In this document: piece after piece, positions 2,313 to 51,400 of the stretch
Layout of the letters: the number at the start of each line of letters is the position of its first letter
Numbering within the stretch: position 1 is the stretch's first letter
Source: Cetorhinus maximus
Taxonomy: Eukaryota
Assembly (NCBI RefSeq): GCF_964194155.1
Contig: NC_135901.1
Span: 27,280,001-27,344,000, forward strand
Direction: 5' to 3'
DNA: 64,000 bases
Made by a program: the position numbers and the translations under genes
Notes under the pieces: model-generated
The model's database searches: none
The model's input: the letters and a program-made list of their open reading frames with translations, nothing else
What the model was told of the DNA's origin: nothing

Positions 2313-2394
2313 GATTTATTCACAGAGTGAAACAGTACAGGTATATACCTCCTGACTCCATTCCACCCTATGTCAGTAAGTGTGGCTTCATCTG
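2313..2394 (-). mobile_element. Fragment of GalEa-like copia LTR
   Basis: Reverse complement of about 50770-50850 (caggtatatacctcctgactc, tgtcagtaag). Confidence 0.8.
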
Positions 2395-2580
2395 CTCTTT
2401 TAAAGGAAACTAAACCAATGAAATAAACTGACAAAAGGTAGTGACAGCCCCTGGTGGGACACTGTGACATAAACAAACCTTTAATTTAATTCTGCAAGTT
2501 TCCTTTTAAAGTGTGGTACCCGGGGCTGACAATGCACTCCAGCCCCCGCGGTGCCCACAGGTCACAGAAGGCCTCGATCT
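2395..2580 (-). mobile_element. Tx1-like LINE 3' end, copy 1
   Basis: Minus-strand translation EAFCDLWAPRGLECIV, homologous to ETFRDRWAPRGLGCII of ORF 3055-3330; 3' UTR ends aaaagag. Confidence 0.65.
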
Positions 2581-2651
2581 TATGAGGGGAGATTGAGGAA
2601 AGTGGGCCTGTAATCTATAGAGCTTCGAGGACTGAGCGGCGATCTCACTGA

Positions 2652-2748
2652 AACTGAAGAAGGGTCTTAGGGAAACGTTAACTCTGTTTCTCTCTCCACA
2701 GATGCTGTCAGACCTGCTGAGCTTTTTTCCAGCATTTTCTGTTTTTAT
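2652..2748 (+). mobile_element. Penelope-like element terminal fragment with degenerate minimal hammerhead motif
   Basis: CTGAAGA-agggtcttagg-GAAACGTT followed by cacagatgctgtcagacctgctgag, same tail as 46360-46480 in reverse. Confidence 0.6.
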
Positions 2749-2749
2749 T

Positions 2750-2853
2750 GGAGCCAATCTATACTTGGTTTAAATTTATTCACAGAATGAAACATTACAG
2801 GTATATACCTCCTGACTCCATTCCACTCCATGTCAGTTAAGTGTCTCTTTATA
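2750..2853 (-). mobile_element. 3' part of GalEa-like copia LTR (5' part lies at 7431-7514)
   Basis: Reverse complement of about 50772-50875. Confidence 0.8.
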
Positions 2854-4030
2854 CTCTTTTGAGGAAAACAGAACCAACCAATTAGCACAAAGAATAAATG
2901 AAGAAACTAACCAAATTGTTTCCCCATGATAACAAATAAAACGAGAACCAATTGACAAATCAACAGAAAGGTCAAATTAACAAATTAAAGAGGGTAATCC
3001 CTTAAAGGGACACTGTAACTAAAAGCAAAAAATCATAAAGGAAACTTGTCTAATTCAAATTAAAACGTGGTTCTTGGGGGGGGGGGGTGCGTTAATGATG
3101 CACCCCAGCCCCCGTGGTGCCCACCGGTCACGGAAGGTCTCCAGCATGCCTCTCCAGGGACACCCGGCCGGGAACATAGCCGGGGAAGAGGGGCAGACAG
3201 TCGGGATGGACGACCCCTCGACTGCCCACTGCTGGGACCTGTTAATGGCCAGCTCGGCCAGGCTCAGGGGCAGGCTTACAAGGAGGTCCTCCTCCCTCTT
3301 CACCCTCCCCACTCCATACCAGGTGCCCAAAGATCAGGAGCGTGGGGCTGAAGTGCAACCAAAAATTAAGAAAAAGCCCCTTAAGAAAACTGAAAAGGGG
3401 CTGTAATAATCTACTACAACTAACACAGACGTGGTCCATGGACTCCACCAAGCTGTAAAAAACGCAGGCATCTTGAGAGTCTGTGAACCCCCTTAACCTG
3501 CGGTTGTCTGGGACTGCTGCGTGCAACACCCTCCACCCCAGGTCCCCGATGGAAAGGGGAAGGACCCCATGTAGAGAGCCCCCCGCAACTGGGGACCTCC
3601 GCCCCCAAATGGTAAGAGAACACACCAAGGCGTGTCTGGCCGGTGGGCGAAGACAAGGAGTTGAAGGGTGTGCAGCAGCAGCCCAGACAGGAAACCCCTC
3701 CGTGCCGAGCTAAAAGGCACGGAGCGCATTTCCACGAGGCAGCTCAGGCTGTGGGGCCCAGGCTCCCGAGAGAGGGTTTGGGTCTTGGGGCCAATATGGA
3801 ATTCCGTCCGAGCAGGGGTACACTCAGACGGGAACCACCGAGCACCTGAGTGTCCTCTAAGCCACGTGTGCCGTTGGGGCTGAACACCACTGTTTGAAGC
3901 TGCTGGATGACATCGGCCGCGAGCTGGACACCCACTGACGCGCAATGCACCAGTTCAAAGGTCATCCAGCCCACTCCTCCCCCACCCAGCAAATAGAGGG
4001 GGGGGCGGGTTCTGGAGAGGGGACACATAG
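2854..4030 (-). mobile_element. Tx1-like LINE, 3' ~1.2 kb (ORF2 C-terminus and 3' UTR), copy 2
   Basis: Frameshifted ORF2 pieces: LGDLGWRVLHAAVPDNRRL..C, ESMDHVCVSCSRLLQPLF, EEDLLVSLPLSLAELAINRS, FRDRWAPRG; typical of L1/Tx1 C-terminal zinc-knuckle region. Confidence 0.75.
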
Positions 4031-7000
4031 GCTTACAAAGCTAAAGGATATGGCAGTATTGCAGGGCAGCTATTTAGGTAATGATTCCCAGAGTGTGACA
4101 GGAAGGGACAGAGTGTACACACATAAAAAACAGCAGCAAATATGGTCAAAGGTGGGAAAAAAACGGTAAAAGGGCAAAATTAATGGCTCTTTACTTAAAT
4201 GCTCCTAGTGTTCAGAACAAGATAAATGAATTAACGGTAAAAATAGAGGTTAATGGATCTGATCTTATAACCATTGCGGAGACATGGTTACAAGGAGATC
4301 AAAGCTGGGAAGTAAATATTCAGGGGTATGTTACTTTTCGAAAGGACAGGCAGGAAGGAAAGGGTGGTGGGGTAGCTTTGTACAAGAGTAAATAAGTGCA
4401 AGAGCAAGAAATGATCTTGGACTGGAAGATGTAGAATCCATATGGGTGGAGGTAAGAAATAGCAAGGGGAAGAAGACACTGGTGGGAGTGGTCTATAGTC
4501 CCCTCACAGTAGCTCTACTATAGGGTAGAGAATAAATCAGGAGATAATGAAGGCATGTAAAAAAGCCAGTACATTAATCATGGGTGACTTTAATCTTCAT
4601 GTAGATTGGGAAAATCAAATTGGCCGAGGTAGCCACGAGCAAGAATTCCTTCAGGACAGTTTCCTAGAACAATATGTTGTGAATCCAACCAGGGATCAGG
4701 CTATTTTGGATGTGGTAATGGGTAATGAGGCAGGTTTAATAAATGACCTCAGAGTAAAAGATCCCCTTGGAAACAATGGCGATAACATGGTAGAATTTAG
4801 CATTCAGTTTGAGAGTGAGAAACTTGGGTCGGAAACAGCTGTGCTAAACTTAAATAAGGGAATTTCAAGGGAATGAGGGCAGAGTTGACTGGAGTGGACT
4901 GGGGAAGGAGTTTAGCAGAAAAGATGGTTGATGAACAATGGCAGACGTTTAAGAAAATAGTTCATGGCTCACAACAAAGATACATCCCAGTGAGGAAGAA
5001 GGATTCTAGGAAGGGGATAAACCAACCATGGTTAACCAAGGCAGTTCAGAATAGTATCAAATTGAAAGAAAAAACATACAATGTGGCAAAGATTAGTGGT
5101 AAGCCAGAAGATTGGGAAAGTTGTAAAAACTAACAAAAGATTACCAAAAAAAAAGGGAGAAAATAAACTGTGAGGGTAAACTAGTAAGTAATATAAAGAC
5201 GGACAGTAAGAGCTTCTTTAAGTATATAAAAAGGAAGAGAGAGGGAAAAGTGAACAGAGGCCCCTTAGAGAATGAGACTTGGGAGATAATAATGAGGAAC
5301 CAGGAAATGGCAGAGGAGTTGAATACATACTTTGCCTCAGTCTTCACGGTAGAAGACACTAACAGCATTCCAAAAATACTAAATCATCAAGGGGCAAAGC
5401 CGGCGGGGGGAGTGGTGTTGGGGGAGGAAATAAATACAAAAACTATCACCAGAGAAAAAGTACTAGGGGAACTAACGGGGCTAAAGGCCGATAAGTCCCC
5501 TGGACCTGATGGGTTGCATCCTAGGATATTAAAGGAAGTAGCTACAGAGATAGTGGATGCAGTGGTAGTGATCTTCCAAGAATTCTCAGATTCTGGAAAA
5601 GTCCCAAAGGATTAGAAAATTGCCAATGTAACACCCTTATTCAAAATGGGAGGGAGACAAAAAAAAGGTAACTATTTGTTTAACATCTGTCATTGGGAAA
5701 ATATTAGAGTCTATTATAAAGGATGTAATAGCAGAGCATTTAGAAATTCATTATATAATCAAGCAGAGTCATTATGGCTTCATGAAGGGGAAATCATGCC
5801 TGACAAATTTATTTGAATTCTTTGAAGAGCTAACAAGCAGGATAGATAAAGGGGAGCCAGTAGATGTAATATATTTGAATTTCCAAAAGATAAGGTACGG
5901 CACATAAGGCTAATTAATAAGATAAGAGCCCATGGTGTTGGCATGGATAGAGGATTGGGTAACTAATAAAAGACAGAGAGTTGGGATAAGGGGGGCATTT
6001 TCAGCATGGCAACTTGTAACTAATGGGGCACCAAAGGGATTGGTGCCACAATTATTTACAACATATATTAATGACTTGGATGAGGGAAGTGAATGTACTA
6101 TTGCCAAGTTTGCGGATGACACAAAAATAGGTGGGAAGGCAATTGGTGAGGATGACACAAAGAGTCTACAGAGGGATATAGACAGGTTAGATGAGTGGGC
6201 AAAAACTTGGCAGATGGAATATAATGTGGGAAAATGTGAGGTAATACACTTTGGCAGGAAGAATAAAGGAGTTGGAATATTATTTAAACGTAGAAAGACA
6301 ACAGAAAGCTGCAGCACAGAGGGATTTGGGGATCCTCATGTATGAATCACAAAAAGCTTACATACAAGGTCAACAGGTAATAGGGAAGGCAAATGGAATG
6401 TTGGCCTTTATTTCAAAGGGAATGGAGTATAAAAATAGGGAAGTCTTGCTAAAACTAGACAAGACGCTTGTTAGACCACACCTAGAATACTGTGAATAGT
6501 TTTGGTCCCCTTATCTAAGGAAAGATATACTGGCATTGGATTCAGTCCAGAGAATCATTAGGTTGATTCCGGGTATGGAGGGATTTTCTTATGAGGAGAG
6601 GTTTAGTCGGTTGGGCCTGTACTCATTGGAGTTTAGAAGAATGAGAGGTGACCTTATTGAAACATATAAGATTCTTTGGGGACTTGACAGGGTAGATGCT
6701 GAGAGGTTGTTTCCCTTTGCGGGAGAGCCCAGGACTAGAGGGCACAATCCTAGAGTAAGGGGTCGTCCATTTAAGACAGAGATGAGGAGGAATTTCTTCT
6801 CTTAGAGGGTAGTGAATCTGTGGAATTCTTTACCGGAGTGGGCTGCAGAGGCTGGGTCATTAAATATATTCAGGGCTGAGATAGACAGATTTTTAATCAG
6901 TAAGGGAATCAAGGGTTATGGGGGAAAAGGCAGGAAAGTGCAGTTGAGGATTACCAGATCAGTCATGATCTCATTGAAATGCGGAGCAGACCCGATGGGC

Positions 7001-7035
7001 CGAATGGCCTACTTCTGCTCCTATGTCTTAAGTCT
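4030..7035 (+). mobile_element. CR1-clade LINE, near-complete degenerate ORF2 (APE endonuclease + RT) and 3' UTR
   Basis: ORF pieces IAETWL, IMGDFN, KSPGPDGLHPRILKE, KFADDTKIGG, VRPHLEYC, RRMRGDLIETYK; tail ctcctatgtctta. Confidence 0.93.
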
Positions 7036-7055
7036 CCAATTAGTGTGGCTTTATA

Positions 7056-7428
7056 CTCTTTTGATTAAACTAAATTAACAAATCAGGAACAAAGTGAAAA
7101 GCAGCCCCTTAAAGGGATACTGCAAAAAGAAAAACTAACCTTAAAGGAAACTTACAACCTCAAATTAAAATGTGATTTGAGAGATCAACAAAGCATCCCA
7201 GTCCCCACTGTGCCCACCGGGCATGGAAGGCCTCGATGGTGCCGGCGGACACCGCGTCTCCCTCTCCAGGGACACCCGGCCGCGAACGTAGCCACGGAAA
7301 AGAGGCAAACAGGCCATACGACCCCCTCAGTCGCCCGCTGCCTGGACCTGTTGATGACCACCTTAGCCAGGCCCTGCAGCAGGATTATGAGGAGGTCCTC
7401 CTCCCTCCTCACCCTCCTCCACACCGCA
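7056..7428 (-). mobile_element. Tx1-like LINE 3' end, copy 3, flanked by imperfect target duplication
   Basis: ORF 7185-7424 EEDLLIILLQGLAKVVINRSRQRA; flanks agtgtggctttata (7042-7055) and agtgtcactttata (7431-7444). Confidence 0.75.
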
Positions 7429-7430
7429 TG

Positions 7431-7514
7431 AGTGTCACTTTATATGTGCTCAAGTAAGCATCTAATCAATGCCCTCCACCTGTATATGCTTAACCTCAAT
7501 TGATACAATTAACA
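7431..7514 (-). mobile_element. 5' part of GalEa-like copia LTR inserted at the 3' end of ZNF-1
   Basis: Reverse complement reads tgttaattgtatcaattgaggttaag...gagcacatataaag, as at 50702-50778. Confidence 0.85.
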
Positions 7515-50701: not shown

Positions 50702-51400
50702 TGTTAATTGTATCAATTGAGGTTAAGTATATACAGGTGGGTGTCATGGATTGCATAGTTACTTGAGCACATATAAAGAGACTCTTACTGACATAGAGTG
50801 GAGCCGAGTCAGGAGGTATATACCTGTAATGTTTCACTCAGTGAATAAATCTATACCAAGTAAAGACTGGCTCCAGTTTCCTCCTTCCCCATCAGGCTGT
50901 TAGGATTATAACATGGTAACAGAGAATGCTTGTCTAATGGTGAAGGTTGGAAACTAAAGGAAAATAAAATTTCAGACAGAAACTTACAATCTGAATAGTT
51001 TTTGTGAGAAATGGCTGAAAGCAAGTGGGAATTGTCAGGGTCTGATTACCCGCCGATGTTCTCGGAGTCTGAGCCACACGACCAGTGGAAGAATGAAGTG
51101 GATATGTGGACACGGGTTACGTCTCTACCAAGGAGGAAACAAGGTCTGGTCTTGGCATCGTCACTTCTCAACAAAAGTAAATCAGAGGCAAAGTATTTAG
51201 TGAGCTGGATGCCTGTCAGTTGGATACTGATGAAGGTTTGGATCTTCTGTTCAGGTTCATTGATGAGATTTACAAGAAAGATATTCTAGTGGATGCCTAT
51301 GAAGCACAGTTGGACTTTGACAGGTTTTGAATGAGGGCAAAAGCATCTGTAGCAGATCTGGATATCACAACAAAAGACAGGATTAGAACAGCACCAATCG
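50702..51400 (+). mobile_element. GalEa-like Ty1/copia LTR retrotransposon 5' end: 212-bp LTR, tRNA-Met PBS, gag start
   Basis: LTR TGTTA(50702)...TAACA(50913) with TATAAA 50772-50777 and AATAAA 50844-50849; PBS tggtaacagagaatg similar to TGGTAGCAGAGGATG; ORF 51011-51289 YPPMF...DQWKNEVDMWTRVTSLPRRKQGLVLA. Confidence 0.72.

Follow-up and report, generated by a model that had tools for sequence, protein, structure and literature searches.

The question raised by this locus is whether one retrotransposon can repeatedly find its way to the promoter of another. The window analysed here is a stretch of 64,000 nt from Cetorhinus maximus (C24:27280001-27344000, contig NC_135901.1, of a 4.0-Gb genome) surrounded by a C2H2 zinc-finger repeat cluster (labelled by eye). 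In it, the 3′ ends of three long interspersed nuclear elements (LINEs) of Tx1 type abut the TATA-like box of a copia-type long terminal repeat (LTR). Several old Tx1 subfamilies sit in sense orientation at the TATA-like box of copia-type LTRs, and it appears reasonably probable that they do so because their endonuclease nicked the antisense strand where the box has its 5′ edge and priming took place there. The pieces on which this answer rests are as follows.

2313..2394, minus strand: 3′ part of the first LTR copy, from the TATA-like box to the polyA-signal region (86.6 % identity to 50770-50851)
2395..2580, minus strand: Tx1 copy 1, a 5′-truncated 3′ end of copy-1 type (matching unit in two other C24 paralogues)
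2749..2853, minus strand: 3′ part of the second LTR copy, with the TATA-like box at its end (88.6 % to 50772-50875)
2854..3991, minus strand: Tx1 copy 2, 3′ untranslated region (UTR) and remnant of the ORF2 C-terminus (43 % to Tx1L ORF2)
7042..7055, minus strand: target-site duplicate on the 3′ side of copy 3, including the TATA-like box
7056..7430, minus strand: Tx1 copy 3, 5′-truncated, copy-3 type
7431..7444, minus strand: target-site duplicate on the 5′ side of copy 3
7445..7514, minus strand: 5′ part of the LTR, upstream of the TATA-like box and beginning with TG (86.9 % to 50702-50785)
50702..50913, plus strand: uninterrupted 5′ LTR (212 bp) of a truncated copia-type element, with TATAAAG at LTR position 71 and AATAAA at 143
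50914..51330, plus strand: primer-binding site (PBS) and broken gag remnant of the same copia-type element

The three LTR/Tx1 junctions proposed in the initial annotation (2394/2395, 2853/2854 and 7055/7056) were found exactly there, and account for three of the four plus-strand occurrences of CTCTTTT in the window. The imperfect 14-bp duplication around copy 3 (7042-7055 and 7431-7444) was likewise recovered, after which the LTR continues to 7514. The LTR copy occupied by copy 1 is not the one in which copies 2 and 3 lie, and no 5′ duplication of copy 1 lies within the window. The three copies share only 61-68 % identity pairwise (128/211, 121/188 and 266/390 positions) and fall in three parts of a weakly supported 113-row tree (4 starred branches of 110; used for coarse grouping only), which argues that they are separate insertions of different Tx1 subfamilies, as the annotation had claimed.

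The assignment of these LINEs to Tx1 also holds. Copy 2 matches Xenopus Tx1L ORF2 at residues 1108-1210 (43 % identity, E value 1e-17) and copy 3 at residues 1212-1242 (52 %, a short piece); a zf-RVT match in copy 2 is weak (E value 0.0016, under the curated cutoff), and the 5′ limit of this copy, at approximately 3991, is where homology to the long copies stops. These long relatives, 68-75 % identical to window copy 2, carry both an apurinic/apyrimidinic endonuclease (APE) domain (Exo_endo_phos, E value 2e-6, L299) and a reverse transcriptase (RT) domain (RVT_1, E value 1e-14, L293), and are 38-45 % identical to Tx1L ORF2. A 211-aa RT piece has 55 % identity over 97 % of its length to YTX2_XENLA (Tx1L ORF2), and the RT is nearer to Tx1L than to other LINE clades as judged by similarity rather than from a reference tree; human L1 ORF2 matches the endonuclease piece at an E value of only 6e-12. 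Among named proteins, the LINE is nearest to one from a shark (64 %). Truncation at the 5′ end together with target-site duplication is likewise as in the Tx1 clade. All 20 long loci examined have broken reading frames only, so that what we describe is a fossil record rather than a demonstrated active system. No full-length LTR-type copy was found in these 20 loci or in 30 loci retrieved with a 5′-end query, 26 of which had a Harbinger flank match and none an LTR match.

The host LTR is copia-like, as first proposed. It has TG..CA ends and a 5-bp target duplication, as for Ty1/copia, and the LTRs of families A, A2, B and C are followed by the PBS TGGTAGCAGAG, identical to the GalEa PBS described in the accessible part of PMC3587641. 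In four C24 paralogues, gag, protease and integrase motifs follow in copia order (by eye), the element being truncated after the integrase; RT was not recovered in these four. Atlas support was 0.94 for GAG-pre-integrase and 0.90 for rve; Pfam returned no relevant family for the short gag, protease and integrase pieces, and a homologue search with the integrase piece gave none at an E value of 1e-10. The GalEa-like Ty1/copia elements, as portrayed in that portion of PMC3587641, share with the target element the PBS, a TGTTA start, an LTR of ~212-217 bp and an integrase immediately after the protease. This likeness is one of PBS, LTR and gene order, and the integrase-first order also occurs in Gmr1-like gypsy elements. 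From its sequence and position, TATAAAG may be a working TATA box. The LTR is covered by contigs of four runs guessed to be RNA, which carry no information on starts, ends or strand.

The LTR/Tx1 unit was copied together with the zinc-finger cluster after the insertions had occurred. C24 loci with the same flanks number 12 for copy 3 (with nearly identical truncation), 10 for copy 2 and 3 for copy 1; having been amplified with the cluster, they are not independent of one another. The best 40 matches to the LTR are all on C24, 39 of them within 26.9-31.2 Mb. These figures favour a reading in which the association is a by-product, either because the LTR sequence is the LINE's own 3′ end or a transduction, or because a single insertion multiplied along with the LTR element or the gene cluster. 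We left the cluster paralogues out of all counts; since top-match searches with the LTR, copy 2 and copy 3 return C24 paralogues first, loci were resampled by exact motifs listed by position.

Four Tx1 samples were drawn with LINE-internal sequence as the sole anchor: set A (the first 30 of 798 matches), set B (copy-2 type; 50 of 200 places, 49 loci, one place skipped), set C (copy-3 type; 50 of 113 places, two skipped) and set E (copy-1 type; the 27 best non-cluster loci). Five loci are common to different sets, while B and E share none. A leave-one-out BLAST against natural LTR halves assigned the flanks as follows:

Set B (n=49): 37 LTR, 12 none
Set E (n=27): 20 LTR, 7 none
Set C (n=50): 19 LTR, 7 Harbinger, 24 none
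Set A (n=30): 1 LTR, 17 Harbinger, 12 none

Off C24, therefore, an LTR half adjoins 57/76 copies of copy-1 and copy-2 type; inspection by eye showed that about six loci classed as none do have an LTR half, and that two labels are weak. The LTRs belong to at least five divergent families (A, A2, B, C, D and E, with a possible F). Where a left LTR half is adjacent, 23/33 junctions lie within 2 nt of one site, and an LTR in the opposite orientation was seen near the junction in 0/157 loci, in agreement with the shared orientation noted in the window.

The converse sample gave the same picture. An exact 21-mer from the LTR has 200 occurrences, of which we took 70 of the first 71 places (the skipped one, L073, is interrupted) and retained 68 loci after removing one duplicate and one non-LTR. 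Ten of the 68 LTRs carry Tx1, and in all ten it is at the TATA site (by eye), whereas other repeats break the LTR at scattered positions from ~86 to 184 (by eye across the 68); one SINE-like pair and two unrelated breaks, not counted here, are also at or near the TATA site. An exact 5-bp target duplication surrounds 6/68 of these loci.

Among Tx1-interrupted LTRs, an exact 5-bp LTR duplication bounds both halves in 5/36 (families B, C and D) vs 0.8 % of mismatched pairs. Interrupted solo LTRs thus retain their own duplication, and the LTR predates the LINE. This, the varying truncation points and the off-target copies that lack LTR sequence show that the LTR flank is not part of the LINE, nor a transduction. 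Local duplication of one insertion fares no better, since the dispersed loci differ in truncation point, Tx1 subfamily and LTR family, and the window copies themselves fall in three parts of the tree. Already contradicted by the loci off C24, the by-product reading is very improbable.

The insertions leave their target usable. In 57 loci a duplication-like match was found, 14 and 15 nt being the commonest lengths and about five rows being spurious; the duplicated stretch includes the whole box and separates stacked copies, so that insertion duplicates the TATA box instead of destroying it. Stacks with such spacers are common (e.g. L073, L211, L249 and L257), which bears out the idea that target duplication allows copies to stack. 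The LINE 3′ end is AAAAGAG, with one extra T in the copy-3/Harbinger lineage, and an A-tail is absent (no T-run before 140/157 junctions, longest 3). Of the two resulting TATA copies, the upstream one faces the LINE 5′ end and the downstream one lacks its former upstream sequence. Two or more Tx1 copies occur in 4/10 Tx1-bearing LTRs, an excess under a Poisson expectation (P=0.005) that is reduced to P=0.055 when target doubling is included.

Recurrent landing at the box makes it likely that the cutting enzyme reads the box sequence. On the antisense strand, a first nick at ..TTTAT/A/TG, where the 5′ edge of TATA lies, would start target-primed reverse transcription, and a second cut would follow ~14 nt downstream. 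The recognised stretch would probably be ~14-19 nt, comprising the pyrimidine tract, TATA and then TGTG, and not a 10-12-nt core. As a copy of TATA is left on each side, the site would be rebuilt at every insertion and later subfamilies could re-insert and stack; in related subfamilies the preference would have shifted to another LTR family, to a Harbinger gene end or to looser sites. The likely benefit is a landing site that is both multi-copy and dispensable.

Motif controls, all sampled from the start of C1, bear on the length of this recognised stretch. The 10-mer TCTCTTTATA occurs 14,744 times without enrichment over its reversed control; the first 70 sites comprised 7 in LTRs, 1 spacer between Tx1 copies and 62 in neither, and Tx1 was present at 0/62. 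The preference for the LTR box claimed from the window is thus upheld for the copy-1 and copy-2 types when 3′ flanks are compared with motif sites (57/76 in sets B and E vs 7/70 10-mer sites; odds ratio 27, P=3e-16). A 12-mer spanning the nick has 1,960 sites; 9 of 30 sampled were LTRs (2 of them Tx1-adjacent), and Tx1 was found at 0/21 others. As these non-LTR sites are never used, a core of 10-12 nt is insufficient. The 14-mer occurs 1,373 times vs 156 for its control, and 24 of 30 sampled sites were LTR boxes or stack spacers, with Tx1 at 0/6 others; a long motif could therefore account for the LTR bias. It could be sufficient for families A, A2 and B, and at these numbers is inseparable from LTR context.

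It is here that a second explanation enters, in which the endonuclease reads a short TA-rich core and context, such as DNA bent by TBP/TFIID or the open chromatin of germ-line-active LTRs, brings it to LTR promoters. The same functional spot is used in five or more LTR families with differing flanks, perfect 10- and 12-nt cores are used at 0/83 sites outside LTRs vs 3/13 LTR sites (P=0.002), off-target sites are degenerate, and stacks exceed the simple Poisson expectation (4/10 vs 8 %, P=0.005), all of which such targeting would produce. Yet the 14-mer is itself mostly restricted to LTR boxes and stack spacers, spacers inside stacks are targeted again although severed from the upstream LTR, the excess of stacks loses significance once target doubling is allowed for (P=0.055), and a sister lineage is just as precise at a non-promoter site. 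We consider this explanation unlikely.

Several observations weigh against recognition of the box sequence by the endonuclease. The AGT(G/C)TC extension is missing from LTR families C, D and E, which nevertheless carry Tx1, and off-target copies with clean duplications match just a short TATA/TTTA or T^G core, so a strict long-motif version fits poorly; the 14-mer control itself included just six non-LTR sites. Copies of copy-3 type lie outside any recognised target in 24/50 cases. The LTR library derives partly from the sampled flanks (hence the leave-one-out design), and automatic labels err both ways. The hairpin-loop region is similar between one LTR-site copy and Harbinger-type copies, so it does not explain the shift in target; the endonuclease of the copy-1 and copy-2 types was not recovered.

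With these points included, the proposal of one family specific for the LTR TATA box requires amendment. The site preference stands, whereas the single family and single LTR target do not, since several subfamilies and at least five LTR families are involved, copies of copy-3 type are in LTRs in 19/50 cases, and a close sister lineage prefers a Harbinger element. Similarly, unrelated flanks are the minority among copy-1 and copy-2 types and come close to a majority in the copy-3 type (24/50).

The geometry of the insertions admits a third explanation, in which promoter capture is combined with RNA-assisted homing. Once inside an LTR, a full-length copy would be transcribed from the upstream TATA duplicate and read to the LTR AATAAA ~72 nt downstream, and its LTR-derived tail would pair with the nicked strand of new LTRs. 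Promoter capture is geometrically possible, given that the upstream TATA copy faces the LINE 5′ end; the uniform orientation, a 5′ junction ~14 nt past the TATA start, the polyA signal 72 nt on, the absence of an A-tail (the 140/157 junctions above) and the similarity of the AAAAGAG end to the target TAAAGAG are also as this scheme would have them. Against it stand the off-target copies, which have at most one extra base and no LTR tail, the absence of a full-length LTR-type copy from the 20 long and 30 5′-end-query loci, and the Harbinger-type sisters, which are antisense to the host gene and possess a long 5′ UTR of their own. We regard it as quite improbable. A broader conjecture, which we think doubtful, is that this LINE lineage tracks LTR core promoters, finding the TATA box of unrelated copia families, duplicating it and placing itself in sense just past the upstream copy; elements of full length would exploit their victim's promoter and polyA signal and cut the LTR element off from its own start, acting as a hyperparasite and a natural TATA-directed integrase.

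Endonuclease recognition of the box, our preferred reading, has precedents. The Tx1L endonuclease is sequence-specific in vitro, according to the accessible part of PMC1950540. Like the LINEs described here, Tx1L of Xenopus laevis encodes APE and RT in ORF2 and uses a fixed site in another transposon; its target is one DNA transposon, Tx1D, whereas here it is the box of copia-type LTRs of several families, with leaky specificity. The hairpin loop here is shorter than that of Tx1L and lacks its RDGH tip. Kojima (2015; PMC4494074, available portion) reports crocodilian Tx1 families preferring Mariner, Harbinger or 'specific groups of LTR retrotransposons', and regards a Tx1 family as target-specific when one sequence type occupies >20 % of flanks; the corresponding fractions here are 37/49, 20/27 and 19/50 for LTRs and 17/30 for Harbinger. 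For Tx1-8_Crp and Tx1-4_AMi, which belong to the Tx1-Mar/Keno group, the same portion names no within-LTR site or TATA box, and they are set apart from our LINEs by description only. Tx1 at an LTR TATA box was not found in the literature searched, most subscription papers and Repbase Reports falling outside that search. The strategy is therefore known, a Tx1 preference for LTR retrotransposons being in print in that part of PMC4494074, while the site is distinctive and its spread over several LTR families unusual, a conclusion we consider well supported. If the box is a working promoter, these insertions would uncouple 5′ LTRs from their genes, and one transposon would curb another.

The sister Tx1 lineage is dispersed (L099-L119, L161-L180, L279 and L441-L470) and sits, in antisense, at the stop codon that closes an ORF with the C-terminus ..RVRKVKKM*. 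Its host is a Harbinger-type element (DDE_Tnp_4, E value 2e-13, beside L302), which flanks 17/30 loci of set A and 26/30 of those retrieved with the 5′-end query, and Harbinger-targeting copies cluster on the tree (5 changes vs 19.5 when shuffled). The lineage resembles Tx1-9_AMi in targeting Harbinger; Tx1-9_AMi lies ~300 bp from the Harbinger 5′ end (PMC4494074, in the text available) rather than at the stop codon of an internal ORF in antisense. Close sister LINE lineages whose 3′ ends are almost identical thus prefer different targets within one genome (LTR TATA-like boxes, the Harbinger stop codon and loose sites), and offer a natural series in which to study how APE-type retrotransposons acquire and switch specificity.

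Off-target Tx1 copies were also observed at TATA-like words inside CR1-like repeats (by eye; L147, L316, L178 and L282), with clean 11-17-nt duplications. A short interspersed nuclear element (SINE)-like repeat of ~150 bp (L192, L220, L240, L172, L258, L284, L456, L467 and L501) has A/B-box-like motifs by eye. Its tail, GAAAGAG(T), is the Tx1 tail, and its insertions, flanked by target duplications, follow GTAA or lie at the TATA site; it is likely a passenger of the Tx1 LINE. Its head was not called a tRNA by ARAGORN or Rfam. Tx1-Mar/SINEU, a SINE that shares its LINE's target in the accessible text of PMC4494074, would be its counterpart.

Very short Tx1 insertions (~20-80 bp; L183, L246, L250 and L224) were also seen, three of them with full target duplications. 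A doubled 3′ end, consisting of two CT(A/C)TTTTGA units separated by 12-20 nt, is shared by several unrelated loci (L155, L283, L285, L271 and L286) and may be either a subfamily tail or the product of repeated priming.

Two further repeats separate the pieces of the window stack:

2583..2748, plus strand: repeat fragment and another common repeat, between the two LTR copies (missing in 7/10 paralogues)
3992..7030, plus strand: LINE remnant of ~3 kb separating copy 2 from the spacer that precedes copy 3 (matches other window repeats)

We take the first fragment (by eye) and the second to be CR1-like. With the CR1-like remnant in between, and 2/14 positions distinguishing the spacer that precedes copy 3 from the flank of copy 2 itself, assignment of this spacer to copy 2 is uncertain; recombination between CR1 copies may have joined copies 2 and 3. 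The variant GTGTGGCTT is common to the copy 1 flank (2380-2394) and the spacer before copy 3 (7042-7055), and is not in the copy 2 flank, which hints at a rearranged history of the stack. The 5′ duplicate of copy 3 reads ..TCGCTT.. in most C24 paralogues, so one of the two mismatches in the window's duplication is likely later CpG decay. Finally, C2H2 zinc-finger reading frames are followed immediately, and in the same orientation, by the copia 5′ LTR (7431-7514 and 50702-50913 in the window; ~27-31 Mb on C24), which could be a source of polyA signals for them.

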